From: Escherichia coli
Lineage (GTDB): Bacteria; Pseudomonadota; Gammaproteobacteria; Enterobacterales; Enterobacteriaceae
Strand: one strand, 5' to 3'
NCBI RefSeq assembly: GCF_003991155.1
Contig: NZ_CP031293.1
DNA length: 64,000 nt
Shown here: piece after piece, positions 7,545 to 46,179 of the stretch
Position numbering within the stretch: position 1 is the stretch's first letter
How the letters are laid out: each line of letters begins with the position of its first letter
Position numbers and translations under genes: made by a program
Notes under the pieces: generated by a model
What the model was told of the DNA's origin: nothing
Database searches by the model: none
What the model saw: the letters and a program-made list of their open reading frames with translations, nothing else

Positions 7545-8915
7545 TTACTTGTTCAATAACGCAAGGATAAGTTTTGTCTTTTCTTCCATCAGCGGCACAT
7601 CACCGCGCGATTCCACATTCAGGCGCACCACCGGTTCGGTGTTGGAGGAGCGCAGGTTAAAGCGCCAGTCGGCAAAGGTCATGCTGATGCCATCGGTGCG
7701 ATCCACCGCCAGCGCCTCACGGCTAAAATGCTGTTCGACGCGATTAATCGCCTCAGCGGGTTGCGCCAGTTTGCTGTTGATCTCACCGCTTGCCGGAAAC
7801 GCTGCCATCCGGTCGCGCACCAGTTCGCCCAGCGTTTTTCCTTTCAGACACACCAGTTCGGCGACCAGCAGCCACGGGATCATGCCGCTGTCGCAGTAAG
7901 CGAAATCACGGAAATAGTGGTGGGCGCTCATTTCGCCACCGTAGATGGCGTCTTCCTTGCGCATACGTTCTTTAATAAAGGCGTGTCCGGTTTTCGACAT
8001 CACCGGTGTGCCGCCCGCGGCGGTCACCACATCAACGGTATTCCAAGAGAGACGTGGATCGTGGATGATCTTCGCGCCGGGATTTTTTTCGAGGAACGCT
8101 TCTGCCAGCAGGCCGACAATGTAGTAGCCCTCGATAAACTGCCCTTTTTCGTCAAACAGGAAACAGCGGTCAAAATCGCCATCAAAGGCAATGCCCATAT
8201 CCGCGCCGTGTTTAATGACCGCATTGCGGGTGTCGTCGCGACATTCCGGCAGCAGCGGGTTAGGAATACCGTTGGGGAAATTGCCGTCCGGCGTGTTGTG
8301 CACTTTGATCAATTCCACAGGTGCGCCGAGGGCTTTAAAGCGGGCTTCGATAGCGTCCACCACCGGACCCGCTGCGCCGTTCCCGGAGTTGATCACCAGC
8401 TTGAGCGGCGTGAGGTTTTTGACATTGATATAACCGAACAGGTGATCAACGTAAGCGTCACGCAGGTTGATTTGCTGATAGCGACCGCATTTGGTTTCAT
8501 CGACGGGAGGAAAGTCGTTGGCTTCAGCCAGACGCTGGACGTCGCGCAGTCCGGTATCTCCGCTGATCGGGCGAGCCCCCTCGCGAACCAGCTTCATGCC
8601 ATTATAATCCATCGGATTATGGCTGGCGGTAACTTCGATGCCGCCATCCACGCCGAGATGGAACGTGGCGAAATAGATCTCTTCGGTGCCGGACATGCCG
8701 ATATCCAGCACATCGACGCCCGCATCCTGTAAACCTCTCGCCAGCGCCAGTTTTAAGGTTTCGCTGGTGAGGCGGACGTCACCGCCTAACACAATGGTTT
8801 TCGGTTTGAGAAATTCGCCATAGGCGCGACCAATGCGCCACGCAATATCTTCATTCAGTTCTTCGCCTAATTTCCCGCGAATATCATAGGCTTTAAAGCA
8901 GGTTAATTTTTTCAT
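7545..8915 (-). CDS. manB: Phosphomannomutase (O-antigen locus copy)
   Basis: 456-aa ORF with phosphohexomutase active-site loop (TASHNP); near-identical to cpsG at 30266..31636 except mainly at the C-terminus. Confidence 0.9.
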
Positions 8916-8939
8916 ATAAAAACCTTACCAATAATAAAA

Positions 8940-9698
8940 TTATTTATGCGCAAACAATTGCATTAGTTTTGAGATTTTTCTGATAATGATAGCAATTTTC
9001 CAATTTACATTATGGTTTTTCATAACTTCTACAATTTCCTTTGTACTTGATATCGCGTTATCAATTCTGGTACTTTCCCCACCCAATCTCATCTTTACAA
9101 ATACTTGAGGAACATAAATAACTTTAATATCATCACGTTTCAAAATCCTGACCATCTGATCATAGTCTGCAGCAATCCTATAGGATAAATCAAAATATCC
9201 ATCGTCTTTATATAATTCCCTCCTCATATAGAAAGATGGATGCGGTGGTGCCCAGCCTAATGATAGCTTAGAACGTTTAAAAGGACCACTACGCCAGTAT
9301 CGTTTGATTATATCAGTTTGGTTTTTTTCGAAAAAAACCAAATCACCGTATACAACATCCGCTTTTGTCTCATGGAAACGGCTTACAATAGTTTCAATAA
9401 TATCAGGTCTTGCTAAAAGGTCATCAGAATGAACGAATCCAATAATATCTCCCGTAGATAAATTTATACCTTTATTTAAAGCATCATAGATACCGTTATC
9501 GCTTTCTGATAGACATTTGGTTACTCTTGTTGATACTTCGTTAATTAGTTTTAACGTATTATCTGTAGAACCACCATCAATAATTATATACTCTATATCT
9601 TTATAGGTTTGCAACTCTATTGACTCTAAAGTATCCCTTAAAGTCTTTTCACTATTATAAGTCACTGTAATAATACTGACTTTCATTTTAACATCCAA
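8940..9698 (-). CDS. Family-2 glycosyltransferase (WcaE-like), O-antigen cluster
   Basis: 252-aa ORF with GT2 motifs (VTYNSE..., DGGSTDNT, DNGIYDA, SDD); visibly AT-rich; alternative start 12 nt downstream (MKVSIITV). Confidence 0.7.
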   Translation of the reverse strand: MDVKMKVSIITVTYNSEKTLRDTLESIELQTYKDIEYIIIDGGSTDNTLKLINEVSTRVTKCLSESDNGIYDALNKGINLSTGDIIGFVHSDDLLARPDIIETIVSRFHETKADVVYGDLVFFEKNQTDIIKRYWRSGPFKRSKLSLGWAPPHPSFYMRRELYKDDGYFDLSYRIAADYDQMVRILKRDDIKVIYVPQVFVKMRLGGESTRIDNAISSTKEIVEVMKNHNVNWKIAIIIRKISKLMQLFAHK

Positions 9699-9769
9699 TA
9701 ATAATCATAATTAAATAACGTCAGTACAGCATTACGAATAATAATGTTGCATTAGTATCCAGCATCATT

Positions 9770-11170
9770 TTAGATTCTAACAACATCATCTTCATCCAAG
9801 TAGACACCTGAACGTACCTCAATAATCTCCAAAGGGATCTTTCCTGGATTCTCAATAAAATGAGGTACACCTATTGGTATATAAGTTGATTCATTTTCAG
9901 AAACAAGAAATATTTCATCTTCATAATGGACTTTTGCTGTTCCAGAAACAACAATCCAATGCTCAGTACGATGGTAATGAATCTGTTTAGCAGTTTTATG
10001 TCCAGGATGAATAACGACATGTTTAACCTCAAATCGAGATCCTTCCGCTATAGAGTCATGACTGCCCCATGGCCTAAATATTTCACGATGCTGCAGATAT
10101 TCCGTACGGTTATTAACCTTAAGTTTTTCTACAATATTTTTTACCTGTTGAACTTTATCTTTATGCGCAACGAGAATAGCATCTTTAGTTTCAACAACTA
10201 CTAAATCTTTAACTCCTACTACACCAATTAATCTATGTTGTGAGTAAAGATAACTGTCAGAAGAATCATGAATTAATACATCTCCTCTAATTGCATTTCC
10301 ACTTTTATCTTTTCTGCTAATTTCCCATAATGCAGACCAAGAACCAACATCGCTCCAGTGGGCATTTAATGGAACTACCACAGCCTCTGTTGTTTTCTCC
10401 ATAACAGCGTAATCAATGGATTCTTCAGGGCAACAACTAAATGAGTCATTATCTATACGGATAAAATCAAGATCTTGTGTAGAGGACTTCAATGCTTGTT
10501 GGCATATTTTTAGTATGTCTGGTCTAAATTTATTCAACTCATCAATAAACACAGAAGCCCTAAACATGAATATTCCACTATTCCAAAGATAATCTCCATC
10601 TTCAAGATATTTTTTGGCCACATCTAGCTCAGGCTTTTCAACAAAAGCAGAAACTTTAAAACCATATTCATTTAAATTTTCTCCGGTTTTTATGTAGCCA
10701 TATCCAGTTTCGGGTTTGGTTGGCACAATACCAAAAGTTACCAGCTTACCTTCCTCTGCAAATTCTTTTGCAGCCAATATTGACGATATAAAGCGCTTTT
10801 GGTCTTGTATTTCATGATCGGCTGCTAGTACAAGCAGTATTGGATCCTCACCTGATGAAATCGCTTTAAGAGCAGCAAGCGCAACTGCGGGGGCTGTATT
10901 ACGACCTATCGGCTCTAGTAAAATGCCACTATTCGCTAAATTTACATTACGCATTTGTTCTGCAACGATAAAACGATGAACTTCATTACAAATAACCAGA
11001 GCAGGACGATGTTCAACCCCTTCAAGCCTTCTTAAGGTCTCTTGTAGCATAGTCAAACGACTAGTTAACGATAGGAATTGCTTCGGATATAGTGTTCGAG
11101 AAAGTGGCCACAATCTAGTTCCAGAACCACCGGCCATTACAACAGGAAGTAGCATATAAATAACCTTCAC
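9770..11170 (-). CDS. manC: Mannose-1-phosphate guanylyltransferase (O-antigen locus copy)
   Basis: 466-aa ORF with nucleotidyltransferase motif (MAGGSGTRLWPLSR) and C-terminal cupin region; diverged paralogue of cpsB; true start may be the Met 15 nt downstream. Confidence 0.85.
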   Translation of the reverse strand: MKVIYMLLPVVMAGGSGTRLWPLSRTLYPKQFLSLTSRLTMLQETLRRLEGVEHRPALVICNEVHRFIVAEQMRNVNLANSGILLEPIGRNTAPAVALAALKAISSGEDPILLVLAADHEIQDQKRFISSILAAKEFAEEGKLVTFGIVPTKPETGYGYIKTGENLNEYGFKVSAFVEKPELDVAKKYLEDGDYLWNSGIFMFRASVFIDELNKFRPDILKICQQALKSSTQDLDFIRIDNDSFSCCPEESIDYAVMEKTTEAVVVPLNAHWSDVGSWSALWEISRKDKSGNAIRGDVLIHDSSDSYLYSQHRLIGVVGVKDLVVVETKDAILVAHKDKVQQVKNIVEKLKVNNRTEYLQHREIFRPWGSHDSIAEGSRFEVKHVVIHPGHKTAKQIHYHRTEHWIVVSGTAKVHYEDEIFLVSENESTYIPIGVPHFIENPGKIPLEIIEVRSGVYLDEDDVVRI

Positions 11171-11622
11171 TTAAAATAATTTTTTGTGTACTGATGAACT
11201 GAGGAATTAGCTAACAATTCGGCTATATCGAACCAATTGTAAGTACTATGTTGTAGTGTTGGATAGTTAATTTGATGTGGCATCAAACTAATCTCATATC
11301 CGTGTACGACATAATGAGTTGAAAAACAAGTCCCAGAAAAATTGTCGCTGTAGAAATGTTCATAAATCCCAAGAAATTTTGCTTCATTAATGCTAATTTG
11401 AACACCCAATTCTTCTAAAGTAACTCTTTTGAATGCGTTCTCGAAAGACTCATCTTTAAGAATCCGTCCCCCCGGCACAAACCAATAATTTTGTGCTGGA
11501 CGATTAAGGCGCTGACCAAGCAGCGCCTTACCATCTTCGTTTCTTATAATAAGGTCTATCGAGATTAGTGGAGTATGTTCAACTATTGATTTAAATAACT
11601 CTGTTTCTAATCTCTTGTTCAA
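11167..11622 (-). CDS. gmm: GDP-mannose mannosyl hydrolase (Nudix), O-antigen locus copy
   Basis: 151-aa ORF, paralogue of the colanic acid gmm/wcaH (shared YWFVPGGR motif); sits between fcl and manC. Confidence 0.8.
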   Translation of the reverse strand: MNKRLETELFKSIVEHTPLISIDLIIRNEDGKALLGQRLNRPAQNYWFVPGGRILKDESFENAFKRVTLEELGVQISINEAKFLGIYEHFYSDNFSGTCFSTHYVVHGYEISLMPHQINYPTLQHSTYNWFDIAELLANSSVHQYTKNYFK

Positions 11623-11624
11623 TA

Positions 11625-12590
11625 TTAACTCCTAAATGAGTCAAGATTATTTATAAACCATTTATATGTTAATTCTAGTCCTTGTTTTAAATTATAACGA
11701 TATTTCCAACCCAAATTCTCAAGGCGTGTAACATCCATAAGTTTACGAGGCGAACCATCTGGTTTTGTTATATCAAAAACAATTTTTCCATCATAGCCAA
11801 CAACTAAAGCCATTGTTTCTGCCATTTCACGTATGGAACAATCAACACCAGTACCTACGTTAATATGAGATAACATTGGTTGAGTATTTTTTTTATAAAT
11901 TTCATCATCAAGCTCCATCACATATACTGATGCAGCGGCCATATCATCAACATATAAAAACTCGCGTTTTGGAGTTCCCGTTCCCCAGACAACCACTTCA
12001 TTTAAACCAAGTTCCTTTGCTTCATGAAAACGCCGCATAAGCGCTGGAATTACATGTGAGTTATTGGGATGAAAATTATCATTCATACCATATAAGTTAG
12101 TAGGCATTACACTGCGATAATCACATCCATATTGGCGATTATAAGATTCACATAGCTTTATACCTGCTATTTTGGAAATAGCATAAGGCTCATTAGTAGG
12201 CTCAAGAGTTCCCGTCAAAAGTGCAGATTCTTTCATTGGCTGTTCTGCAAACTTTGGATAGATACAACTTGACCCTAAGAATAATAGTTTCTTTATGCCC
12301 GCTTTGTAAGATGAGTGAATAATATTGCTTTCAATAAGAAGGTTCTGATAAATAAATTCAGCTGGAAAAGTGTTATTAGCATGAATTCCTCCTACTTTTG
12401 CTGCTGCAAGGTAAACCTGATCTATTCTCTCTTGCTCAAAAAAACATTCAACATCCTTTTGAACTGTCAAATCGAGTTCTTTGTGAGTTTTGACAATTAA
12501 CTCAACATCATTACGTGCTAATAATTGACGACAAATAGCAGAACCAACCATCCCACGATGTCCAGCCACAAAAATTCGCTTCTTGGTCAT
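11625..12590 (-). CDS. fcl: GDP-L-fucose synthase (O-antigen locus copy)
   Basis: 321-aa ORF ([19 protein letters not shown]...) clearly paralogous to the fcl at 34970..35935. Confidence 0.9.
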
Positions 12591-12593
12591 ACT

Positions 12594-13715
12594 TTAACGC
12601 TCCAAAGAGACTGCCACGTCAAAACCATGGCTTTTAAGAAGTGCATGCTGTTTAGCTTTTTCTAAATCACTAGCCACCATTTCTGCACACATTTCTTCAA
12701 CTGTAATCTCTGGCTCCCAACCCAAGACATTTTTTGCTTTTGTTGGATCACCAAGAAGAGTTTCAACTTCTGCTGGTCGAAAATAACGAGGGTCAACGCG
12801 AACAATAACATCACCAATATTAACACCAACGGCGCAATCTGATGTTTTATTTACAACAAATGCAATCTCATCAACACCAGTACCGGAAAACTCAAGTTCA
12901 AGTCCAACTTCTTTAGCAGACATACGGACAAATTCACGTACAGATATTTGTTTGCCGGTGGCAATAACAAAGTCTTCTGGCTGGTCTTGTTGAAGCATCA
13001 TCCATTGCATACGAACATAATCTTTCGCATGCCCCCAATCGCGTAAAGAATCCATGTTGCCAAGATATAAGCATTTTTCTATTCCCTGCGATATATTAGC
13101 TATAGCACGTGTGATTTTACGTGTTACAAACGTTTCCCCACGACGTGGGGATTCATGATTGAACAAAATACCGTTACATGCATACATTCCATAAGACTCA
13201 CGATAGTTTACAGTGATCCAATATGCATACAGTTTAGCTACGGCATAAGGTGAACGAGGATAGAACGGCGTTGTCTCTTTTTGTGGAACTTCCTGAACTA
13301 ATCCATACAATTCAGAGGTTGACGCCTGATAAAATCGGGTTTTTTTTTCTAATCCCAAAAAACGAATAGCTTCCAATAATCGTAAAGTACCTATAGCATC
13401 AACATCAGCTGTATATTCTGGGGATTCGAAGGAAACAGCTACGTGACTCATTGCGCCAAGATTATAAACTTCATCAGGTTGAACTTCAGATAATATCCGA
13501 GTCAAATTAGAAGTATCTGTTAAATCACCATAATGAAGTTGTAATTTTAAATTACGATGGTGTGGGTCTTGATATATATGATCAATACGGTCAGTATTAA
13601 ACAAGGAAGATCGACGTTTTATTCCATGAACCTCATAGCCTTTTTTAAGCAGAAATTCTGCCAAGTAGGAACCATCTTGCCCGGTAATTCCTGTAATTAA
13701 AGCTTTCTTACACAT
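12594..13715 (-). CDS. gmd: GDP-mannose 4,6-dehydratase (O-antigen locus copy)
   Basis: 373-aa ORF ([17 protein letters not shown]...) highly similar to the colanic acid gmd at 35938..37059. Confidence 0.95.
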
Positions 13716-13725
13716 AAATAACCTC

Positions 13726-14733
13726 TCAAAACTTAGATAGTGATTTATATAGATTATATGTTTCGGAGAAACACTTCCCCCATGAAAATTTATTAGATTG
13801 CGCTAATCCTTTATTTTTTAATTCATTAGCGTTAGCTTCTACACTTAATAAAGCTGAGAATAAACTTTCAATTGATACTTCTTCGACTAAAATCGCACTA
13901 TCCCCCACAACCTCGGGTATTGATGATCTATTTACGGCTATCACAGGACAGCCAGTTCGCATAGCCTCAAGCAAGGGAATTCCAAACCCTTCATATTCTG
14001 AAGGATAGATTAAGCAATAAGCCGAATTATATAATATATTTAGTTTTTCATTTGATACCTTCCCTAAGTACTGGAATCTTTCTGGAAGATATTCAGATAG
14101 TAACTTCATTTCTGCTTTATTTAAACCACCTCCGCCGACTATTTTAAGATTAGTATCAAAAAGTTTAGAAATGGCTTTAACTGCAAGCTCAAAATTTTTA
14201 TATCCTGAACGAGCACCGACAAAAAGCACAAAATTTTCTTTTTCTAGATTTAAGTGTCTATAATCTTCCGATACACCATTATGAATAACATGTATCTTTT
14301 TTTCATCAACCTTAAAGAAATTAATTAAATCCTTGGCTGTATTATTAGAGACACAAATGATTGCATCGCTATGTTTCACAGCCCATCTTTTTTGTAAGCT
14401 ATGAACATTGCGCCGAAGTCCTTTCATATACAATTCATATGTGAAATCGTGGACCGTGGTCACAACCGCATATTCCCCATCTTTCGGAACCCGATAATAT
14501 GTAGAATGAAATATACTGTAATCTGAATCACTTTTTAATGCTTCAAAACATCTATATCGTTCTAAAAACCGGCATGGCCGATGGAGATCATCATTGTGAT
14601 TTTCATTTTTATCATTAAATTGAATGAACTTGTATTCGTCATTTTTTAATCTCTTAATGATTTCTTCAAAGTATACAGTGATACCACCATATGATTGTAA
14701 ACTTTTCACAATCCCATCATATAATATTTTCAT
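13726..14733 (-). CDS. Family-4 (GT-B) glycosyltransferase, O-antigen cluster
   Basis: 335-aa ORF with C-terminal [13 protein letters not shown] motif typical of GT4 enzymes; AT-rich. Confidence 0.7.
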
Positions 14734-14801
14734 TTTTTGTTTTCATATATATAGATAACAATACAGTAAGCAATGAAATGGATGATTATAATTGTTTCAA
14801 T

Positions 14802-15818
14802 TTACTCTTTATATCCATTTGGATTCATTGTTTGCCATCTCCATGCATCTTCCACCATATTATTAAGAGTCCTTTTAGCAACCCAACTTAGCTGCTCGTT
14901 TGCTAAGGAAGGATCGGACCAACATTCAGCCACATCTCCATTTCGCTCAGAAACGATACGGAAAGGTATATCGCGTCCTGTTTCCAGTTTAAAAGCGTCG
15001 ATGATATCTAACACACTATAACCTTGACCAGTGCCTAAATTAAAAACTTTAAGCCCCTGGTTTCTATTGAGATTTTTTAAAGCGGCAAGATGCCCCTCAA
15101 CTAAATCGACTACATGGATATAATCTCTTACACCTGTTCCATCTTTTGTCATATATTTATTACCAAAAACATTTAGATAGGGTAATTTTCCAATTGCGAC
15201 TTGCGCAACATAGGGAAACAGGTTATTAGGAGTTCCTAAAGGATCTTCTCCAATTAATCCAGTCTCATGAGCACCTACAGGATTAAAATATCTTAGTATT
15301 GTGATATTTGCGTCGCTATTCGCGTTACAAAAATCACGCAATATATGTTCCACCATAAACTTTGAACGACCGTACGGATTGATCACCTCACCGACAGGGT
15401 GTTTTTCAGATATTGGAACATAATGAGGATTGCCATAGACAGTAGCAGACGAACTAAAAATTAGATTAGAAATATTCGCTTTCTGCATTTCATCAAGTAA
15501 TATTAGAGTCCCCAAAAGATTTGTGTCGTAATATTCTAATGGTTTTTTAATGGACTCGTTAACAGATTTTAAACCCGCAAAATGCATTACAGTAGAAACA
15601 TTATATTTTGAAAAGATATTTTTTAATATATGTCTATCTCTAATATCACCACGTAATTTTTTTATCTTAGATAAGCAAATTTCCTCTACTCGTTCTAGAG
15701 ATTTTGGAGAGGAATTGCAATAATTATCTAGCGATATAACATCATATCCATTTTGCAATAAAGTTAATATAGCATGTGAGCCAATATAGCCAGCCCCACC
15801 AGTCACAAGTATGCTCAT
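14802..15818 (-). CDS. UDP-hexose / UDP-N-acetylhexosamine 4-epimerase (GalE family)
   Basis: 338-aa ORF with N-terminal TGGAGYIGSH Rossmann motif and overall GalE-like layout; embedded in the O-antigen cluster; substrate not determinable from sequence. Confidence 0.85.
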   Translation of the reverse strand: MSILVTGGAGYIGSHAILTLLQNGYDVISLDNYCNSSPKSLERVEEICLSKIKKLRGDIRDRHILKNIFSKYNVSTVMHFAGLKSVNESIKKPLEYYDTNLLGTLILLDEMQKANISNLIFSSSATVYGNPHYVPISEKHPVGEVINPYGRSKFMVEHILRDFCNANSDANITILRYFNPVGAHETGLIGEDPLGTPNNLFPYVAQVAIGKLPYLNVFGNKYMTKDGTGVRDYIHVVDLVEGHLAALKNLNRNQGLKVFNLGTGQGYSVLDIIDAFKLETGRDIPFRIVSERNGDVAECWSDPSLANEQLSWVAKRTLNNMVEDAWRWQTMNPNGYKE

Positions 15819-15838
15819 ACTTTAATAGCTCCAATACC

Positions 15839-16906
15839 TTAATTTTCTTGACTATTGGCTCGATTGATCAAACTCATCCACTGAGCACTAACTATTTCTT
15901 CTGTATAATGTCTATTCACGAATAGGAATCCTGCATTTCCGTGTTCGGTTCGTTTAACATTATCTTCAAAGTAAGTTAGTTTTTCCTGAAATTCAATTTG
16001 AGATTGACACACAAATCCGCCACCCGATGAAGAAATCACGCTACTTGTCCCTCCAGATATATCCATTGAAATTACAGGTAATCCGTAGGACATAGCTTCA
16101 AGTATTGTAACAGGAAAACATTCAAAGTATGAACCGGATACAAAAACATCACTTTTTGCCAAAAAAACATCTGTGTTTAAACTCGGTCCATGAAAGTGTA
16201 TTTGGTTGTTATTCTTATATTTAGATTTGAGATACTCCAGCTCTTGACCACCTCCTACAATGTGTAAAACATACTTTTTTGTAGACGGGTGATTTATTAC
16301 TGCATTAATTAACCTTTCAACTCCTTTATCTTTAACAATCCGACCAATATAAATCAAATCAAGAGTTTCTTTTCCTTGATGTATGCGCTTATATTTTTGC
16401 GTTTTGATTGAATTTGGTATAATTACAACCCTTTTACAAAAAGTAAACTTATCTTTTTCCTTGTGAGAATTACAAACTACTACAGCTTTTTTATTAAGAG
16501 ACAAAAGAAATTTAAATACTTTTCTCCAAAAAATACTATTCTTGTCAAATGGATAATGTTCCCAGCAAATAATTTTATTCTTATTATACCGAAAAAAACC
16601 AATCAATAACAATAATGATGATGTAGCTATATCCGTGGAAATTATTAATTCAAGGTCTTTACTTTTGGCACTCAAAAAAAACAAATATTTAATGTAAAAC
16701 CTTAATTTGCTTTCTTCATATGCAGTATTGTCTTGGAATAAGTAGGTTTTCCGATTATCTTCTCTAACTTGTATCTCTTGTGCGTTTATTGCTGAAAAAC
16801 ATCTCACTTGTAGGCTGTTTTTAGTTAATATATCAATTAGATTTTCAACTGCTTTCTCAGTGCCACCTATTTTATTTTCATACAGCTTAAAGACTCCAAT
16901 GGACAT
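15839..16906 (-). CDS. Family-4 (GT-B) glycosyltransferase, O-antigen cluster
   Basis: 355-aa ORF with GT4-type C-terminal motif (FECFPVTILEAMSYGLPVIS). Confidence 0.7.
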   Translation of the reverse strand: MSIGVFKLYENKIGGTEKAVENLIDILTKNSLQVRCFSAINAQEIQVREDNRKTYLFQDNTAYEESKLRFYIKYLFFLSAKSKDLELIISTDIATSSLLLLIGFFRYNKNKIICWEHYPFDKNSIFWRKVFKFLLSLNKKAVVVCNSHKEKDKFTFCKRVVIIPNSIKTQKYKRIHQGKETLDLIYIGRIVKDKGVERLINAVINHPSTKKYVLHIVGGGQELEYLKSKYKNNNQIHFHGPSLNTDVFLAKSDVFVSGSYFECFPVTILEAMSYGLPVISMDISGGTSSVISSSGGGFVCQSQIEFQEKLTYFEDNVKRTEHGNAGFLFVNRHYTEEIVSAQWMSLINRANSQEN

Positions 16907-16907
16907 T

Positions 16908-18143
16908 TTATTGACTCACTCTTATATATTCTGCTGATTTAACTTCTTTATTGAATAGGAATAATGAGGGCTTATACAATATATCGCACCAAGACACATA
17001 AATAATATCTTTACCCATATTTGCCTGTGCCAAATTTATGATTGAACATGCGGTAATGAGTATTAAGAAGATCAGATGCTTACATAGTTTGCTAATTTTA
17101 TTAATATCGTAGGAGAAAAATATATAACTATATAATAACACCCAGAAAATGGAAAATCGATAAAATAAATCAGGCGATAACGATAAAAGGCATATCAGCA
17201 AAAGAAGTAAACTGCAAAAATTTTTGATTTGTGACTCTTGCCTCGTCATTTTTTTATTAAATAAAATTAAATAGATAAAAGTAAAAATAAAAAACACTGA
17301 CGGTAATATGATCTTATTCAAGATATATTCATTAGTGCTCAGCAAGCTATTGCTTATGCCTATGGTTACAGAGTCCATATATTCGGGAAAGTAAAAACCT
17401 AAGCTTTCCAATAATGGCCTAATCAATTGAAATAGCAAAGAAGATATTAACCCATCATGGTTAAGGATTAGAACTAATATTATTAAATACAATATTGTTT
17501 TGTTAAGTCTTATTAATTTGCTAACAAAAAAAACACCTAGCAATAGTATTGCGCTGGGATGAATACAACATGAAATAATTGCAGAGAATATAATTTTTTG
17601 TGACTTATACCTATTATTTTCACTGGTGAAATACTGTATAATCATATAAAGCATAATACTAAATGCAAGATATTGCCGCAATGAACTAGCTATAGCAAAA
17701 AATGGGATTACGCTTATTAGAATATATAAATATATACATCTATGAGATAATTCCGGATTGTATTTTTTAATGTAATTAACATATATATTAAAATAAAAAA
17801 TATATGATAAAAATGTTGAAAAAAAAGGTAAAAATTCTTTTTTTATTCCTAAAGATTTAAATAAATAAATAACAGTATTTATTGTAATATATCTATTGTC
17901 ACTATTTTCAAAAACTTTGTTTAGTGATGTTTGACTAACATATAAATATGTTTCATAATGCCTAGTCAAATCCCAATTTTCATAAGGTATTAACAAAAAT
18001 GCTAGTACCCCTAGCATAAATGAACATACATAAACACTCCATCTGGCCCCATTAATCATTTCAATCATTGCTAATAATAAAGCAAGAGGCAAATAAATTA
18101 TTGAAATAAATGAAGCACTAATTTTTATGTTTCTATTAATCAT
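16908..18143 (-). CDS. wzy: O-antigen polymerase
   Basis: 411-aa very hydrophobic, multi-pass, AT-rich ORF with low similarity to anything else in the window, between glycosyltransferases; typical Wzy signature. Confidence 0.65.
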   Translation of the reverse strand: MINRNIKISASFISIIYLPLALLLAMIEMINGARWSVYVCSFMLGVLAFLLIPYENWDLTRHYETYLYVSQTSLNKVFENSDNRYITINTVIYLFKSLGIKKEFLPFFSTFLSYIFYFNIYVNYIKKYNPELSHRCIYLYILISVIPFFAIASSLRQYLAFSIMLYMIIQYFTSENNRYKSQKIIFSAIISCCIHPSAILLLGVFFVSKLIRLNKTILYLIILVLILNHDGLISSLLFQLIRPLLESLGFYFPEYMDSVTIGISNSLLSTNEYILNKIILPSVFFIFTFIYLILFNKKMTRQESQIKNFCSLLLLLICLLSLSPDLFYRFSIFWVLLYSYIFFSYDINKISKLCKHLIFLILITACSIINLAQANMGKDIIYVSWCDILYKPSLFLFNKEVKSAEYIRVSQ

Positions 18144-18865
18144 CTTTTTATAACTTTTCTCATAAATAGGTAAATATCTGCTAACGCCGCATATAATTTC
18201 CCGTTTCTTTTCTTTCGGATTTGTCTCGCTTCCTCCAATGCTAATTTTACATTTTTAGCGCTAAGGCCGGCATTTCTCATCGAAGAGATATTTTTATCAA
18301 TATAATGAAAGATATAACCTTGTTTCTTCAATTTTAGCAAAAGATCATAATCAGAAGCAATTTTATAGCTAGTATTAAATAAATTTTCTCTGTGGATATC
18401 TTTTCTAATAAATGTGGCCGGATGGCTTAAATTCATATCTATATGTAGTTTCCAGTCTTTAGGCCTCCGGACCTGAATAACATCCAAGCTATCAGCCTCT
18501 ACCAAAGACATATTTCCATAAATAACATCATATTTATTTTCTTTCATTACTTTTATTACTTGACATAATACATCTTTATTATAAAAATCATCAGCGTTTA
18601 TAAATCCTATATAATTTCCAGATGCTTTTAACACACCTTTATTCATTGCATCATATATACCATTATCATTTTCAGAAATGATATATGAAATTTCATTTTT
18701 GTAAGAATTAACAATATTTAGAGTATTATCCGTTGATGCACCATCAATTATAATATATTCAATGTCATCATTGCAGTTTTGTGATAAGACACTTTTTATA
18801 GTATCTTCGATATACATTTCGCCATTGTACACAACGGTAACTATTGTTAAAGTTGGTTTATTCAT
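18140..18865 (-). CDS. Family-2 glycosyltransferase (WcaE-like), O-antigen cluster
   Basis: 241-aa ORF with GT2 motifs ([28 protein letters not shown]); paralogous to the GT2 at 8940..9698 and to wcaE. Confidence 0.7.
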   Translation of the reverse strand: MNKPTLTIVTVVYNGEMYIEDTIKSVLSQNCNDDIEYIIIDGASTDNTLNIVNSYKNEISYIISENDNGIYDAMNKGVLKASGNYIGFINADDFYNKDVLCQVIKVMKENKYDVIYGNMSLVEADSLDVIQVRRPKDWKLHIDMNLSHPATFIRKDIHRENLFNTSYKIASDYDLLLKLKKQGYIFHYIDKNISSMRNAGLSAKNVKLALEEARQIRKKRNGKLYAALADIYLFMRKVIKR

Positions 18866-18873
18866 TGTTAGCC

Positions 18874-20109
18874 CTACAATAAATTTAAATTATTTAATTT
18901 ATTTGTTTTCTTAATCAAAAAGTAAAATCTCGCCATTATTATAAACTCAGTTGAAATAACTCCTATTGCTGTACCAACTCCTGAGTATTCATTAGTCAAA
19001 TAAGTAATTATCAGTAGGCCTATTAATCCACTGGTAGTAATAATTTTTGTAAATTCTTTTTTCATACCAATAGGGATCATTACTAAAATTGCAATATAAT
19101 TACTTACCGTAACTATTGCTGGAGTAAAAGCTAAAACTTTGAGTATTTCTAAAGATTCATGATACGTTTTTCCATACATGATTAAAATTATATCGTCTGC
19201 AAAAAAGTAAAGAAATATGGAAAGTACGAACATCAGTGAAAATTGCCATCGAAACACTTTCCTGGCTAATAATAGTCCATCGTCATGATTATCCTTCATT
19301 ATATAAGTTACTCTAGGAAAAACAGCTTGGGTTATAGGACCAATAACGCCTTGTAGTGCAAGCCTAATTTTATCTGCAGCGATAAAATATCCCACTGCAG
19401 TTGTTCCTGATAATGCACCTAATATTATTGTTGAACTAGTAGTATAAAGGCTTATTGCTGCAGAGGAAATGAAGTAATGCCATCCATCATAAATTAACTC
19501 TTTCATTTTGGATAAGGATGGTGGTACCCATATTATTTTTTTAAGAGAAAATAAAAAATATGTAGATATTATACCTGCAATAACTGTTATTGATGATTGT
19601 ATTGTTATCGCTATACCAAGATCCTTTTCACTTTTAACCAATAAAAATGTTAAACATAGTGTAAGTAAGCGTGCGGAAAACATACTTATCGCTATTCCTA
19701 ACATTTTTTCCAGCCCTTGAAAAAACCATACTGGATATATTAAATTTCCTACGACAGATATGTATGCAAGAATGATAAATTTAATTTGGTAATCAATGAT
19801 ATTCAATTCCGAAATTAAATAAATAATTAACAAACCAAGAGATGCTGCAATTATTTTGATAAACGTTACATTCCAAAAAACTTTACTTATGGAATCAGTA
19901 TTTTCCCTTGATATTGATATGATTTTGGGCGCTGAGTAGTTAAATCCGTAATCAATAAATAATATAAAATATTGGACCACAGCAAAACTATACCCATATA
20001 TCCCGTATCCTGTAGGTTCAAGGATCCTGACAAGATAAGGCAGTGTGACCAATGGAAATATATAATTGCCACCTTGAACGCTTAATAAATAGATGATGTT
20101 TTTTAACAT
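18874..20109 (-). CDS. wzx: O-antigen flippase
   Basis: 411-aa polytopic membrane ORF with Wzx/MOP-family-like N-terminus; first gene downstream of the JUMPstart/ops element. Confidence 0.7.
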   Translation of the reverse strand: MLKNIIYLLSVQGGNYIFPLVTLPYLVRILEPTGYGIYGYSFAVVQYFILFIDYGFNYSAPKIISISRENTDSISKVFWNVTFIKIIAASLGLLIIYLISELNIIDYQIKFIILAYISVVGNLIYPVWFFQGLEKMLGIAISMFSARLLTLCLTFLLVKSEKDLGIAITIQSSITVIAGIISTYFLFSLKKIIWVPPSLSKMKELIYDGWHYFISSAAISLYTTSSTIILGALSGTTAVGYFIAADKIRLALQGVIGPITQAVFPRVTYIMKDNHDDGLLLARKVFRWQFSLMFVLSIFLYFFADDIILIMYGKTYHESLEILKVLAFTPAIVTVSNYIAILVMIPIGMKKEFTKIITTSGLIGLLIITYLTNEYSGVGTAIGVISTEFIIMARFYFLIKKTNKLNNLNLL

Positions 20110-20189
20110 AACGAGCCTACGTACTTAACAAGTCTTATTTTGCACGATAGTTTACAATTTGTTAAGTAATATGGGATAAACATTTAATT

Positions 20190-20201
20190 CACGCTACCGC
20201 C
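20190..20201 (-). promoter_or_regulatory. ops element (GGCGGTAGCGTG on the coding strand) within a JUMPstart-like leader of the O-antigen operon
   Basis: Exact reverse complement cacgctaccgcc seen on the + strand in the galF-wzx intergenic region. Confidence 0.8.
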
Positions 20202-21617: not shown

Positions 21618-22613
21618 TTACTCAGAAACAAACGTTATGTCGTCTTTTTTGGCATGGACGAATTCATACTGCAGAGTTCGATCCAGACCTTGCGACAGCG
21701 TATACGGTGCCACAAAACCTGAAGAATGCACTTTCGTTGCGTCAAACTGTGTTGTTGCGCAGAATTTTTTCACGCGCACTGAGCTGACAGCGTATTTTTT
21801 GCCCGTAATTTTGCTCAGGATATCAAAACAATATCCCCCCAGCATTCCTAGTGGGTAAGGCAAGTGCATAGAAGGGATCTTTTTGTTCAGGCTTTGTTCA
21901 ACTTCAGCAACCAACTGGTTCATGTTCAGGTCTGGCTTATCAACGTAGTTATAAACCTCATAACCTGCGGCAACATTCTTCAGTTTGTACTTGATAAACT
22001 CAACAATGTTTCCAACATAAGCCATGGACTTATAGTTAGTCCCTGCGCCCACCATCATAAACTTGCCGCCAGCGATCTGTTTCAGCAAGTTATAGACGTT
22101 ACCGCGGTTGCGTTCACCGAAGATAACGGTAGGACGGATGATGGTTAATGAACGTTCTGTTGGTGCTTTGTTATACCATTCACGCAGCACTTCCTCTGCC
22201 TGCCACTTACTTTTGCCGTAGTGGTTGAAAGGGTCGTGTGGATGGTTTTCGTCAGGGTTGTGTTTGTTCAAACCATAAACAGCAACGGAACTGGTAAAGA
22301 TGATATTTTTAACGCCATTTTTTTCCATGGCAGCCAACACATTGCGGGTACCCTGAACGTTGACATCATAATAGAGAGAAGTAGGGCTGACGTCATCGCG
22401 GTGTTCCGCTGCCAGTAGCACAACAGTGTCAAAACCGGCTAACGCCTGGTCGAGTGCCTGTTGATCACGAACATCGCCAATCTGTGTGATTTCTGGATAA
22501 AAGTGGCTCTGCTGTTTGTCCAGGTTCTTGATATTAAAGTCAGCAATTGCCGTTTCAAGTAGTCGGGTTCCTACGAATCCGGAAGCTCCTATGAGCAAAA
22601 CGTTATCGTTCAT
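21618..22613 (-). CDS. gnu: NAD-dependent epimerase of the Z3206 type (annotated as Gne or Gnu in other E. coli), between wcaM and galF
   Basis: 331-aa ORF with N-terminal GASGFVGTRL Rossmann motif; size and position match the epimerase found at this site in several non-K-12 serogroups; identity from memory, not searched. Confidence 0.65.
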   Translation of the reverse strand: MNDNVLLIGASGFVGTRLLETAIADFNIKNLDKQQSHFYPEITQIGDVRDQQALDQALAGFDTVVLLAAEHRDDVSPTSLYYDVNVQGTRNVLAAMEKNGVKNIIFTSSVAVYGLNKHNPDENHPHDPFNHYGKSKWQAEEVLREWYNKAPTERSLTIIRPTVIFGERNRGNVYNLLKQIAGGKFMMVGAGTNYKSMAYVGNIVEFIKYKLKNVAAGYEVYNYVDKPDLNMNQLVAEVEQSLNKKIPSMHLPYPLGMLGGYCFDILSKITGKKYAVSSVRVKKFCATTQFDATKVHSSGFVAPYTLSQGLDRTLQYEFVHAKKDDITFVSE

Positions 22614-30265: not shown

Positions 30266-31636
30266 TTACTCGTTCAGCAACGTCAGCAGAGTTCGCGTTC
30301 GCGCTTCCATCAGCGGCACATCACCGCGCGATTCCACATTCAACCGCACCACCGGTTCGGTGTTGGAGGAGCGCAGGTTAAAGCGCCAGTCGGCAAAGGT
30401 CATGCTGATGCCATCGGTGCGATCCACCGCCAGCGCCTCACGGCTAAAATGCTGTTCCACGCGGTTAATCGCCTCAACGGGTTGCGCCAGTTTGCTGTTG
30501 ATCTCACCGCTTGCCGGAAACGCGGCCATCCGGTCGCGCACCAGTTCGCCCAGCGTTTTTCCTTTCAGGCACACCAGTTCGGCGACCAGCAGCCACGGGA
30601 TCATGCCGCTGTCGCAGTAAGCGAAATCACGGAAATAGTGGTGGGCGCTCATTTCGCCACCGTAGATGGCGTCTTCCTTGCGCATCCGTTCTTTAATAAA
30701 GGCGTGTCCGGTTTTCGACATTACCGGCGTACCGCCTGCGGCAGTCACCACATCAACGGTGTTCCAGGAGAGACGTGGATCGTGGATGATCTTCGCGCCG
30801 GGATTTTTTTCGAGGAACGCTTCTGCCAGCAAACCGACAATGTAGTAACCCTCGATAAACTGCCCTTTTTCGTCAAACAGGAAACAGCGGTCAAAATCGC
30901 CATCAAAGGCAATGCCCATATCCGCGCCGTGTTTGATGACCGCATTGCGGGTGTCGTCGCGACATTCTGGCAGCAGCGGGTTAGGAATACCGTTGGGGAA
31001 ATTGCCGTCCGGCGTGTTGTGCACTTTGATCAATTCCACAGGTGCGCCGAGGGCGTTAAAGCGGGCTTCGATGGCGTCCACCACCGGACCCGCCGCTCCG
31101 TTCCCGGAGTTAATCACCAGCTTGAGCGGCGTGAGGTTTTTGACGTTGATATAACCGAACAGGTGATCAACGTAAGCGTCACGCAGATTGATTTGCTGAT
31201 AGCGACCGCGTTTGGTTTCATCGACGGGAGGGAAGTCGTTGGCTTCTGCCAGACGCTGGACATCGCGCAGTCCGGTATCACCGCTGATCGGGCGGGCCCC
31301 CTCGCGCACCAGCTTCATGCCGTTATAATCCATCGGGTTATGGCTGGCAGTAACTTCAATGCCACCATCCACACCAAGATGGAACGTGGCGAAATAGATC
31401 TCTTCGGTGCCGGACATACCAATATCCAGCACGTCGACGCCCGCATCCTGTAAACCTTTCGCCAGCGCCAGTTTTAAGGTTTCGCTGGTGAGGCGGACAT
31501 CACCGCCTAACACAATGGTTTTCGGTTTGAGAAATTCGCCATAAGCGCGACCAATGCGCCAGGCAATATCCTCATTCAGTTCTTCGCCTAATTTCCCGCG
31601 AATATCATAGGCTTTAAAGCAGGTTAATTTTTTCAT
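30266..31636 (-). CDS. cpsG: Phosphomannomutase (colanic acid locus copy)
   Basis: 456 aa from MKKLTCF (ORF track extends 16 codons further upstream); near-identical to manB at 7545..8915. Confidence 0.9.
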
Positions 31637-33267: not shown

Positions 33268-34491
33268 TTATCCCCGAATATCATTTATAAATTGACGTAA
33301 CACGTTCTCTTTATCGAGCGTGCGTTCGGCATATTCACGTGCCACCGTGTTGTGTTTGGGCAGCAGGAGCGCCTGACGAATCCCCGCCACCAGCGCCTCG
33401 ACCGATTCCGGTTCCACGCAAACCGCAATGCCCGGAAAGGTTTCGCAAAGCTGTCCCAGTTCTGTGTGGGCTTCAGCAGTAATCACCGCGTTACCGCCTA
33501 CCGCCAGAATATTGGTCAGTTTCGACGGCAATACGGCATCTGCCGCGCCGCGTTTTTGCACCACCAGATGGCAATCCCCCATCTTCAGCAGTGCGGGTAA
33601 AGCGTCATATGATTGCAGCGGAAAAAATTGCATGTTGCGCAGTCCACGCTGCTGCGCCATTTTTTCCAGCCGCGCTTTGCCGCCGCCCTGCCCGACAATG
33701 GCAAAAATAAGCGGTTCATCGCGCAGGCGATCGGCAGCTTCAATAACGTTTTCCAGCCCCTGCTTTTCACCAATATTGCCGGAGTAAAGAACGATTTTTT
33801 TGTTATCCGGCAGGGCAAGCTGGTTACGAAGGTCGTCAACATCGGCGTCTGCAACATGTTGAAAACGGGCGATTTCCGACCAGTTGGGGAAGAAGATGAC
33901 GTTTTCCGCCGCCACGCCTTTTTCGATAGCTTTATTCATCATCGAGCGCGAAATCGTGGAGACGTTATCGACGTTATGCAGTCCGCTACGTTCGAACGCC
34001 GTCGCCAGCTGTGCCACTTTGCCGCCTTTACTTTTTCCGGCAAGGCCCAGCCCCAGCATGGCGTCCACTTCGTAATCCTGAATATGCAGCACCGTGCGCG
34101 CACCAGACAGTTTCGCCAGCAGGCGCATTCCCGGCGTGCAAAACAGCGTTGGCACCACGCCGATAATGCGATCCGGCTTCCAGCGACGTTGCGCCATCAG
34201 CGGAAAGAAACTGCTGGCGGCAAAACTGCCGAGATGCAACAGGCGTTTCAGGGTGCTCGGCTGTTTTGGCACGTACAGCGGGCAGCGCCACACCGTGGCG
34301 GCCCCCTCTTCTCGTTTGTACCGCCAGGCGGAATAGTTCTCGCCCACCTGCCATTGCGGGTAGTAAGGCGGTGCGGTAATAACCCGCACCTCATGACCTT
34401 GTGCCGCCAGCCATTCCACCATCTCGCCGGTGTACTTGCCGATGCCGGTTAACTCCGGCGAGTAGTTAATGCCGTAGACCAGTATTTTCAT
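33268..34491 (-). CDS. wcaI: Colanic acid glycosyltransferase WcaI
   Basis: 407-aa GT4-type ORF. Confidence 0.9.
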
Positions 34492-34970
34492 AATCCGGGT
34501 ACTCCGGCACGCTTCTCAGCGAGAAAATAGGCGCGGCTGTTAGCGTGAACATTGTCACTGGCGAGCAACGCGTCCGGCGTCAGCCAGCGGTAATCGTCAT
34601 GCTGCTCATCCGGCAGTAACAGATCTTCTTCAGCGACTCTGAAGCGAAAACCGAGCACCACATAGTGAGTGGTGAAATCCGTGTCGGAGAAGTTATCGTC
34701 ATAAAAGTGCTGCCAGACACCGTAAAACTGGCCTACTGTTATCGGCAGACGCAGCCCCAGTTCCTCCATCGTCAGCCGCTCAAATGCGGCTTCCAGCGTT
34801 TCGTCTTTCTGCACGCGCCCTCCCGGCACAAACCAGTAACCCTGCGCCGGGCGGTTGGTTCTTTTGCCAAGCAGAAACTCGCCGCGACTGTTCTCGACAA
34901 TAAAGTCGAGAGAGACAAGCGGAGTAGAGCGCACTACCGTGGCAAAGTCTTCCTGACGTAAAAACATCAT
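34488..34970 (-). CDS. gmm: GDP-mannose mannosyl hydrolase (Nudix), colanic acid locus
   Basis: 160-aa ORF with Nudix-like features; overlaps wcaI start and fcl stop. Confidence 0.9.
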
Positions 34971-35935
34971 TACCCCCGAAAGCGGTCTTGATTCTCAAGG
35001 AACCACTGGTAAGTGCTGGCGAGCCCCGCTTCCAGTGAGATTTCGTGATACCAGCCAAGCTGATGCAGGCGTGTCACATCCAGCAGTTTGCGCGGTGTAC
35101 CATCCGGTTTACTGGCATCAAAAACCACCCGACCTTTGTAACCCACCACTTTGGCGATGGTTTGCGCCAGCTCGCGGATAGTGCAGTCAACGCCCGTGCC
35201 GACGTTAATGTGCGACAGCATCGGTTGGGTGTTCTCCAGCCAGACTTCGTGCGCCAGCTCCATCACATGAATGCTCGCCGCCGCCATATCATCGACGTGC
35301 AGAAATTCGCGCATCGGTGTACCGCTGCCCCACACCACCACGTCCGGTGCATTCTGTGCCGTCGCCTCGTGGAAGCGACGCAGCAATGCAGGGATCACAT
35401 GCGAATTACTCGGGTGGAAGTTGTCATGCGGGCCATACAGGTTGGTCGGCATGACCGAGCGATAATCGCGTCCATACTGGCGGTTGTAAGATTCGCACAG
35501 TTTGATCCCGGCGATTTTGGCAATAGCATAAGGCTCGTTAGTCGGCTCCAGCGTACCCTGCAATAACTCGCTTTCTGCCATCGGCTGTTTTGCCAGTTTC
35601 GGGTAGATACAGGACGATCCGAGAAACAGCAGTTTGTTCACGTCGTTCTGATGCGCGGCGTGAATGATGTTGCTCTCAATCATCATGTTCTGGTAGATGA
35701 AATCTGCCGGATAGGTGTTGTTGGCAACAATGCCGCCCACTTTCGCCGCCGCCAGATAGACCTGGTCAATACGTTCGCTGGCAAAGAAATCATGCACCGC
35801 GCGGCTGTCCAGCAGGTTCAGCTCGTCGCGGGTGCGTAATACCAGTTCCACATCACCGCGCTGTTCGAGCTGCCGCCTGATGGCGGAACCGACCATCCCG
35901 CGATGGCCAGCGATAAAAATGCGTTGTTTACTCAT
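34970..35935 (-). CDS. fcl: GDP-L-fucose synthase, colanic acid locus
   Basis: 321-aa [22 protein letters not shown]... Confidence 0.95.
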
Positions 35936-37649: not shown

Positions 37650-38396
37650 TCAGCTTTTGTTATATAAGGCTTTCGTCTTTGAGGTAGTACGCTGGCGTAA
37701 ATGCCAGGATAATTCTGCCCAGAAGCCAGGCACATGTAATATTTGCCGTTGGACTTTTTTGGCATCAGCACACAATTCCATATTATTGGTGGTAGATACC
37801 CCACCCATGGAAAATTCAGACACCAGGCCATTGAGTTTTTTAAATGCATAACCGGCTTTATACATTTTGGCCGCCAGCGCGTAGTCGGAAGAAACTTTAT
37901 ATTCCAGGTCATAACGCCATTTCTTCAAGCCGGACACCGGGAAAAATATCGCCTGATGACTGGCGGGCAGGCTGTGGTAAATATACCAGCCCGGTTTGGC
38001 GCTACGTTTAATTTTATGCCCGTCGCCAAAATCCAGCAGCGCATCGCCGGTGATCATCACGTTATCTTTTTGCACTTTTAACTTACGGACAAAATTTGCG
38101 GCATCCTGATGAAAAATATCGCCCGAGTTGAGAAACAACGCGAACTTGCCTTGTGCCATCGCAATGCCCTTGTTCATGGCGTCGTAGATACCGTTATCTG
38201 GCTCGCTGACAAAGCGTAGGTTATAGATACCCTTGAGATTTTCCAGATACTCACGGGTACCGTCGTTGGAACCGCCATCGACAACAATCCATTCGAAGCT
38301 GATATCGTCCACCTGCGCTAGATGCGCCAGCGAGGCATGTGTTTTGACTATCCCTTCGAGGTTACGAAACGCGACAGTGATTATGCTAAGCAACAT
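37650..38396 (-). CDS. wcaE: Colanic acid family-2 glycosyltransferase WcaE
   Basis: 248-aa ORF with GT2 motifs ([19 protein letters not shown]). Confidence 0.9.
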
Positions 38397-38406
38397 GTTC
38401 TTATTC

Positions 38407-39624
38407 TTACCTCGTAATATTTAACGCTTTTCGCAAAATAAACGGACAGACGATTAAAAATGCATATTCCGGGCTAAATATCGAACCGGTAAAAAACAGC
38501 GATACCGGAGTAAAAAGATATAATTGCACGCGAAAATTGCGGTTATCACCAAAAGCGTTGATCATCATTTTTATCACTTTCCCCATGTACCACAGCGATA
38601 AAAACACTGCGAACCAGGAAAAATAAATAATCAGCAGATACAAACCATTGTCTATGGTTTTTCCGACATCCGCACCGTTAAATATTCCGAATGATGCGAC
38701 ATATTCATAAAGTGAGCCAAATCTGACTACACCGTCAATATGGGTCAAAGAATAACCGACCATCACCAGCGGACCGACAATACGATAATACGATGACGAA
38801 CCTTCCGTGCCTAAATCACCCAGACGGGTGGAAATATAAGGAAACGCGATTACCACACCAACCAGGAATACAGCCAGAGAAACCAATGCTAACGGTAACT
38901 TTTTCTTAATCGCCTCTTTATTCAGATATTGAAATGCCCACTCCAGCAAATAAAAAAGGATAAAGGTCATAACCCCTGAAAACGATCCGGATAATATTAT
39001 CCCTGCGAGAATCATAGCATCGGTTTTAGGCGTTTTGATACCAAACTGTTTGATGCTGAGCCAAATTGAGATTAATGCCAGAGCGAAAAATGCCGGTTCG
39101 AAATAAAGTGCTGTCGTGCGCTTGCCGCCGAATTTAATGAAATTCAGCACATAGCTGTTGCTGTAAATCAGATATTTCGAAATCGACTCCATAATACTGC
39201 TACCGCCGGTGAGGATAATTTGCGCCATCTCCACCGCCGCCAGCGCCACCACCAGCCCGACCACCAGATAAAAGAAACGTAATATCTTGCGATGGTTGTG
39301 TGGCGAAATTGTTTTAAAACGAATACTCCACACCATGCCAATAATGATCACAATATAGACAAACAGCATGGTTGAAGTGACGTATTTACTGGCATCCAAC
39401 GACTGACCAAACAGGTAGTTAAACGCCGTGAGTCCCGCACCAACCCCTAAGGCAATCATCAATTTTTTAACGTTGATGCGCTCTAAAAACAGCAGTAACA
39501 AGACGGGTAAAAAAGTGACGATGGTAATGGGGAAACTTTCGCCAAGCTGGGCGATTTTGACGTTAACCAGCAGGTAAATCAGCGGCAGCAGTAGGTAGCT
39601 ACAGATTCTGATAGAAGTTGACAT
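38407..39624 (-). CDS. wcaD: Colanic acid polymerase WcaD
   Basis: 405 aa from the internal Met [12 protein letters not shown]; polytopic membrane protein; 5' end overlaps the wcaC 3' end. Confidence 0.85.
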
Positions 39625-46167: not shown

Positions 46168-46179
46168 CACGCTACCGCC
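46168..46179 (-). promoter_or_regulatory. ops element (GGCGGTAGCGTG on the coding strand) in the JUMPstart leader of the colanic acid operon
   Basis: Exact reverse complement cacgctaccgcc on the + strand, ~180 nt upstream of the wza start. Confidence 0.8.

Follow-up and report, generated by a model that had tools for sequence, protein, structure and literature searches.

The two family 2 glycosyltransferase (GT2) genes of the O-antigen cluster in a 64,000-nucleotide stretch of Escherichia coli contig NZ_CP031293.1 (hereafter the window) most likely both encode fucosyltransferases. We propose that the two proteins of the O11 cluster, termed GT2a and GT2b here, belong to the WcaE/WbdO/WrtF subfamily of inverting GT-A enzymes and that each would act as a guanosine diphosphate (GDP)-beta-L-fucose alpha-L-fucosyltransferase, a reading to which we give a probability of about 75%. 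The assignment is firm for GT2a and less so for GT2b; it builds on the observed gene content, family membership, conserved residues and synteny, from which donors and acceptors are predicted. A first-pass annotation, made from the letters of the sequence, had suggested that one or both of the genes may encode fucosyltransferases, and this is still the best reading, with both as the more probable form of it.

Both open reading frames (ORFs) named in that annotation are real, and only the start of GT2a needs to be moved. GT2b lies at 18140..18865 on the minus strand and encodes 241 amino acids (aa). For GT2a the ORF finder took a TTG and reported 8940..9698 (252 aa), but the ATG four codons downstream, at 9686, is used by the Prokaryotic Genome Annotation Pipeline (PGAP) and by all close homologues and gives a 248-aa protein beginning MKVSIIT. 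Both proteins match the Pfam family Glycos_transf_2 (PF00535) far above its cut-off of 23.3 bits (GT2a, 104 bits, E 1e-29; GT2b, 101 bits, E 8e-29). By BLASTP the two share 36% identity (E 3e-44), and compared with WcaE, which the window encodes in its colanic acid cluster, GT2a has 29% identity (E 4e-16) and GT2b 31% (E 3e-29). A regular-expression scan of the six-frame translation of the window found the motif pair D-G-[GA]-S-[TN]-D-[NG]-T and [EN]-[PSN]-D-N-G-I-Y-D-A-[ML]-N-K-G exactly three times, in GT2a, GT2b and WcaE, the proteins for which it had been named.

Among solved structures, the best match of both proteins is the 9omh series (GT2a, E 5.4e-25 over residues 5-216; GT2b, E 6.5e-22 over residues 6-217), which aligns over the whole catalytic domain and leads the next GT2 structures (1e-16 and 1e-14, respectively) by about eight orders of magnitude. 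A length of 279 aa and a GADD motif identified the 9omh chain as Rhizobium tropici WrtF, and its numbering, which is that of the paper plus 1, was corrected in our alignment. WrtF is a GDP-fucose (GDP-Fuc) alpha-1,4-fucosyltransferase of GT-A fold, and researchers have placed it in one GT2 fucosyltransferase lineage together with WbdO of E. coli O157 (assayed), Bf4306, WcaE (knockout evidence) and GtfD (PMC12595478). The residue roles assigned in WrtF are guanine binding for Asp66, packing against fucose for Ile69 and Tyr70, placement of the sugar for His142 and Asn143, and that of general base for Asp167 (PMC12595478). Asp66, Gly68, Ile69, Tyr70, His142 and Asp167 are all kept in GT2a, GT2b, WcaE, WbdO and every one of 16 sampled clade relatives, and the D-x-G-I-Y residues (66, 68, 69, 70) occur in GT2a, GT2b and 19 of 19 aligned relatives, whereas the unrelated WbdN, WcaA and one Yersinia GT2 carry Asn at 66 and depart from the motif at 69 and 70. 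This conservation indicates that D-N-G-I-Y-D-A-x-N-K-G is the nucleotide/fucose-contact loop of the subfamily and not a generic GT2 motif. The likeness to WcaE goes beyond what any two GT2 proteins share: it runs over the full length and extends to the catalytic Asp and the C-terminal His, and for both O11 proteins the best relative among solved structures is WrtF.

The O11 proteins also differ from the known enzymes in several respects. Both are about 30% identical to WrtF over the full length and retain D91-D92, but in place of the Gly89 of WrtF, GT2a has His and GT2b has Asn, a difference argued to block the non-productive donor pose of WrtF (PMC12595478), and the C-terminal acceptor domain is divergent, the acceptors of WrtF being unlike those of the O11 enzymes. 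With WcaE and WbdO, the latter an assayed alpha-1,4-Fuc-transferase of E. coli O157, they share the GT2 subfamily, the DxGIYDAxNKG and DG[GA]S motifs, a length of about 245 aa and a setting in Wzx/Wzy-dependent clusters with gmd and fcl; the identity is only 25-32%, the tree clades are separate, and where WbdO and WcaE have N-[AS]-G-D the O11 proteins have [HN]-[SA]-D-D as the full motif. The subfamily likeness has even been carried into annotation, as the WbdO of O157 Sakai (ECs_2843, at 34733-35479 of locus L008) bears the gene name wcaE.

The chemistry of the O11 unit gives further evidence. An alpha-L-fucoside made from GDP-beta-L-Fuc requires inversion, which fits GT2, while alpha-mannose (Man) and alpha-N-acetylhexosamine (HexNAc) are made with retention, which fits glycosyltransferase family 4 (GT4). 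The O11 pentasaccharide synthesis paper describes four alpha linkages and one beta linkage, with beta-N-acetylgalactosamine (GalNAc), alpha-L-Fuc, alpha-Man on this Fuc, and a disaccharide donor of a 2-azido sugar, giving HexNAc, that bears a fifth alpha residue. Since the fucose was coupled in alpha configuration to the sole free hydroxyl (O-3) of a 4,6-benzylidene GalN3 acceptor, the unit contains alpha-L-Fuc-(1->3) on its primer HexNAc, a fact that comes from the synthesis and not from the sequence. A 1985 paper by Lonn deals with alpha-L-fucopyranosyl oligosaccharides. The thioglycoside donor of the fifth residue is cited to that paper in the O11 synthesis work, and residues B and E gave nearly identical anomeric nuclear magnetic resonance (NMR) signals; from these two points together we infer two alpha-L-Fuc per unit. 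A unit with a GalNAc primer, one alpha-Man, one alpha-HexNAc and two alpha-L-Fuc would call for two inverting and two retaining transfers, which is just the number of GT2 and GT4 proteins, two of each, that Pfam recognises in the cluster. An arrangement with alpha-HexNAc as primer and beta-GalNAc added by a GT2 was rejected, because it needs three inverting enzymes and one retaining enzyme against the two of each that are encoded.

The absence of a family 11 fucosyltransferase, stated in the first-pass annotation, was borne out. The GT11 and GT10 Pfam families gave no match among the seven non-pathway proteins of the cluster, the remaining five genes are GDP-sugar pathway genes according to PGAP, and the intergenic gaps within the cluster are at most 83 bp, so that there is no space for a further gene. 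The GT11 alpha-1,2-fucosyltransferases (WbsJ, FutC type) share the donor and the product anomer, alpha-L-Fuc, with the predicted activity of the O11 GT2s, but they belong to an unrelated GT-B family. If the two GT2s are alpha-L-fucosyltransferases, as is probable, the lack of a GT11 gene leaves no gap in the pathway.

The first 46 kb of the window run his, wzz, ugd, gnd, O-antigen cluster, galF, gnu and colanic acid (wca) cluster, with the O-antigen and wca cluster genes on the minus strand. The stretch 8900..20200 is present at 100% identity in 65 complete E. coli genomes, the flippase and polymerase are named "O11 family" by PGAP in the matching genomes, and the O11 O-antigen gene cluster of E. 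coli occupies the region between galF and gnd. The guanine-cytosine (GC) content is 25-39% across 8940..20109 and about 50-55% in the flanks. The E. coli O11 O-antigen's structure and its gene cluster were reportedly described by Li, Perepelov and co-workers in 2011, together with Salmonella O16. Starting at gnd, the genes follow one another as manB, GT2a, manC-gmm-fcl-gmd, GT4, gne, GT4, wzy, GT2b and wzx. The features are as follows, with gnu and the comparator wcaE at the end:
7545..8915, minus strand: manB (phosphomannomutase), cpsG-like, high GC; NF011943, 1049 bits
8940..9686, minus strand: GT2a, a GT2 of WbyL/WbyQ/WdaG type; predicted GDP-L-Fuc:GalNAc-PP-Und (undecaprenyl diphosphate) alpha-1,3-fucosyltransferase, first glycosyltransferase step; PF00535
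9770..11155, minus strand: manC (mannose-1-phosphate guanylyltransferase); PGAP, GC 37%
11167..11622, minus strand: gmm (GDP-mannose mannosyl hydrolase); PGAP
11625..12590, minus strand: fcl (GDP-L-fucose synthase); PGAP
12594..13715, minus strand: gene between fcl and GT4, in the place of gmd in the cluster order; PGAP
13726..14733, minus strand: GT4 of WbyK/WdaF type; predicted alpha-mannosyltransferase onto Fuc, second step; Pfam GT4 and Glycos_transf_1
14802..15818, minus strand: galE/gne-type 4-epimerase; probably supplies uridine diphosphate (UDP)-GalNAc in a putative Gne role; NF007956, 449 bits
15839..16906, minus strand: GT4, WdaE-type by position; predicted from the linkage count as alpha-HexNAc transferase onto Man, third step; Pfam Glycos_transf_1
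16908..18143, minus strand: wzy (O11 O-antigen polymerase); "O11 family O-antigen polymerase" in PGAP, Pfam EpsG
18140..18865, minus strand: GT2b, a WcaE/WrtF-like GT2, WdaD-type by position; predicted alpha-L-fucosyltransferase, distal Fuc onto HexNAc; PF00535
18874..20109, minus strand: wzx (O11 O-antigen flippase); PGAP, Pfam Polysacc_synt
21618..22613, minus strand: gnu (Und-PP-GlcNAc 4-epimerase, GlcNAc being N-acetylglucosamine), gives GalNAc as first sugar; PGAP product name
37650..38396, minus strand: wcaE of the colanic acid cluster, comparator; TIGR04009, 511 bits

Based on this gene content, the O11 unit would be assembled as follows. WecA and Gnu would provide GalNAc-PP-Und, to which GT2a, as an enzyme of the WbyL/WbyQ/WdaG type, would add alpha-L-Fuc at O-3 of GalNAc. 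The GT4 next to gmd would then put alpha-Man on that Fuc, the second GT4 would add alpha-HexNAc, probably GalNAc from the in-cluster epimerase, and GT2b would add the second alpha-L-Fuc, after which Wzx would flip the unit and Wzy would polymerise it through the beta-GalNAc linkage. Followed from gnd inwards, the genes of the four glycosyltransferases would thus stand in their order of use, each beside the genes for its donor, as in the Yersinia model (PMC5399914). The location of gnu upstream of galF fits a GalNAc-primed unit, in agreement with the role described for gnu in such units (PMC7685785, PMC5399914). Between the gmd-adjacent GT4 and the Yersinia mollaretii GT4 at the matching place upstream of gmd, the identity is 53%, and WbyK is predicted to make alpha-Man-(1->3)-L-Fuc (PMC5399914).

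Several points weigh against assigning both GT2s as fucosyltransferases. The Asn143 of WrtF is Pro in GT2a, GT2b and both of their clades, and the N143A variant of WrtF retains only 5% activity (PMC12595478). Phe191 of WrtF is likewise replaced by Met in GT2a, GT2b and both clades, with one Val exception. The five known enzymes are said to have Asn143 and Phe/Tyr191 in common (PMC12595478); in our own alignments position 143 is Gln in WcaE and Gln or Ser in WbdO. It is possible, although we consider it doubtful, that the two clades, with their His-Pro, Met191 and x-D-D, form a mechanistically distinct and uncharacterised branch of GT-A fucosyltransferases, which may be metal-dependent, or that the donor of GT2b is other than GDP-Fuc. 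On the side of the comparison enzymes, WbyL is itself only a predicted alpha-L-Fuc-(1->3)-GlcNAc transferase, and WbyQ, used when gnu is present, is only a predicted alpha-L-Fuc-(1->3)-GalNAc transferase (PMC5399914). On the side of the chemistry, the fifth residue is read as Fuc from the donor citation and the NMR signals, and the HexNAc of the unit may be GalNAc or GlcNAc, with GalNAc as the more probable.

The donor of GT2b deserves particular caution, as its assignment leans mainly on the linkage count, with the conserved contact residues in addition. The closest homologue of GT2b is found in Salmonella O16 serovars (68% identity), where the GT2 gene listed right after wzx has been named wdaD, and all other matches listed are at or below 55%. 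Some clusters that hold GT2b relatives (42-55% identity) show neither gmd nor fcl within 10 kb (locus L009 and Francisella locus L011), and one Vibrio locus of the clade has a gmd-like gene at its edge. The clade is therefore not tied to GDP-fucose, and our confidence in the GT2b donor is lowered. These relatives could be taken to mean that GT2a is the only fucosyltransferase, that GT2b is an inverting enzyme for another sugar (for example, a UDP-sugar giving a beta linkage), and that the second Fuc is added by another enzyme; since close GT2b relatives occur, among the matches listed, only in Salmonella O16 serovars, synteny gives no reading of its specificity either way. We nevertheless regard this as unlikely, because the sole beta linkage in the synthesised O11 unit is that of the primer GalNAc, which is made by Wzy, because GT2b keeps the guanine/fucose contacts Asp66, Gly68, Ile69 and Tyr70, and because the only transferases left over are the two GT4s. 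A GT4 in the role of the alpha-fucosyltransferase was rejected, as a retaining enzyme would yield beta-L-Fuc from GDP-beta-L-Fuc.

The other proposal of the first-pass annotation, that the two genes are WcaE-derived recruits, was contradicted. The shared subfamily motifs and the presence of wcaE about 20 kb away within the window might suggest that both are duplicates of the resident wcaE recruited into the O-antigen cluster. However, at 29-31% the identity to WcaE is no nearer than that to WbdO or the rhizobial WrtF (25-32% throughout), and against the WcaE equivalog model TIGR04009 (cut-off 369.2 bits) GT2a scores 65.4 and GT2b 100.1 bits, compared with 511.5 bits for the WcaE of the window. 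The GC content is 29-32% in the two GT2 genes and 47% in wcaE, and the nearest relatives are found in Citrobacter, Salmonella, Yersinia and Vibrio with a matching gene order. In a bootstrapped neighbour-joining tree, GT2a falls in a clade with 92% support together with proteins from Citrobacter, Salmonella, Edwardsiella, Yersinia, Photorhabdus, Pectobacterium and Vibrio, GT2b falls in a second clade with 100% support, and WcaE, WbdO and WrtF group weakly, apart from both. Identity, model score, GC content and tree thus led us to reject a duplication of wcaE, to which we leave practically no probability.

The first-pass annotation was right that one GT2 gene, GT2a, lies between manC and manB, but this position, which it called unusual, recurs in several genera. 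The GT2a family comprises more than 7,800 database proteins at E<=1e-10, many of them about 50-73% identical, and a recognisable relative is present in 228 of 5,426 complete E. coli genomes. In every genomic context that we opened, the homologue adjoins manB, and in all but one it stands directly between manC and manB, downstream of gmd-fcl and mostly with gmm present. These contexts are as follows:
manC-GT2-manB: Citrobacter freundii (L003, L004), Pectobacterium carotovorum (L005), Vibrio parahaemolyticus (L006) and Yersinia mollaretii (L007)
manC-GT2-manB: E. coli O184 (L012) and a further E. coli type, strain EC25 (L013)
GT2-manB-gnd: Salmonella (L002), the exception, on a contig that begins at the GT2 gene

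The homologues in the manC-manB position of other genera are 52-73% identical to GT2a, with 73% in Citrobacter and 53% over the full length for the Y. mollaretii protein, and the Salmonella protein (P0019) reaches 63%. For Yersinia pseudotuberculosis the order gmd, fcl, manC, wbyL, manB has been stated outright, the interleaving of glycosyltransferase and pathway genes has been explained as "function order", and wbyL has been reported for Y. mollaretii ATCC 43969 (PMC5399914); we take the Y. mollaretii protein in the wbyL position to be WbyL. In Salmonella O16 the glycosyltransferase genes wdaD, wdaE, wdaF and wdaG follow the O11 order, wdaF and wdaG recur in O39, and GT2a corresponds by position to wdaG. 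GT2a thus resembles WbyL, WbyQ and WdaG in its clade (92% support), in the order gmd-fcl-(gmm)-manC-GT2-manB, in the reducing-end Fuc-alpha-(1->3)-HexNAc of the O11 unit and in the presence of gnu, as in the WbyQ/GalNAc types. There is no difference of substance, and GT2a would be the E. coli O11 allele of a group whose function is predicted as a whole.

The C. freundii cluster of CP199763.1 (L003) parallels the O11 layout, with a putative wzx, GT2, acetyltransferase, GT4, putative wzy, GT4, gmd, fcl, gmm, manC, GT2 and manB. Its two WcaE-like GT2 genes, at 1420-2163 and 10001-10747, encode proteins 45% identical to GT2b and 73% identical to GT2a, respectively, which suggests that this cluster makes a related unit with two fucoses.

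The position of GT2a is therefore explained by an inherited gmd-fcl-(gmm)-manC-GT2-manB block order found in several genera and not by a local insertion. A secondary insertion of GT2a into a once contiguous manC-manB pair in the O11 lineage might be supposed, as manC and manB are adjacent in some clusters (e.g., E. coli O157) and the GC content steps sharply from 32% in GT2a to 55% in manB. However, manC-GT2-manB with an orthologous GT2 (52-73%) occurs in four other genera and two other E. coli clusters, a fifth genus, Salmonella, shows GT2-manB-gnd, and the GC break is accounted for by the likeness of manB to the resident cpsG. Conserved synteny contradicts such an insertion, which we hold to be very improbable. 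The O11 manB (GC 55%) has 96.3% nucleotide identity to the colanic acid cpsG at 30266..31636, whereas identity to the colanic acid paralogues is only about 70% for O11 manC, gmd and fcl, and GT2a and manC, beside it, have a GC content of 32-37%. The reason for the break is thus that manB, being nearly identical to cpsG, was replaced or homogenised, and the 24-bp gap between GT2a and manB is the end of the foreign low-GC block. This suggests that manB recombined or underwent gene conversion with cpsG. The manB of the O184 cluster is named "CpsG" by PGAP.

Two further observations were made on the cluster. In NZ_CP058879.1 (strain STLEFF_29), an otherwise identical O11 cluster aligns as two pieces with a span about 777 bp longer than the query, and it probably carries an insertion. 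In addition, the ops core GGCGGTAG occurs in five minus-strand copies in the window, compared with 1.27 expected by chance:
20194-20201, minus strand: in the 372-bp gap between wzx and galF, heading the O-antigen operon
33498-33505, minus strand
39200-39207, minus strand
46172-46179, minus strand: upstream of wza, heading the colanic acid operon
46759-46766, minus strand: within an ORF on the plus strand, beyond the colanic acid operon's head
These copies are consistent with JUMPstart/RfaH control.

The feature as a whole is an ordinary, published O-antigen cluster with a known enzyme class, since GT2 fucosyltransferases are established by the assay of WbdO in 2023 and the structure of WrtF in 2025. 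The finding therefore has little significance beyond correct annotation: the two O11 entries that PGAP names "glycosyltransferase family 2 protein" can be read as probable alpha-L-fucosyltransferases, and by implication so can their Salmonella O16 counterparts and the GT2a-type gene of E. coli O184. If the two clades do form a distinct branch of GT-A fucosyltransferases, O11 would offer a natural GT2 pair for work on acceptor specificity, one enzyme acting on GalNAc-PP-Und and the other on a tetrasaccharide. The two enzymes could also be candidates for chemo-enzymatic fucosylation.

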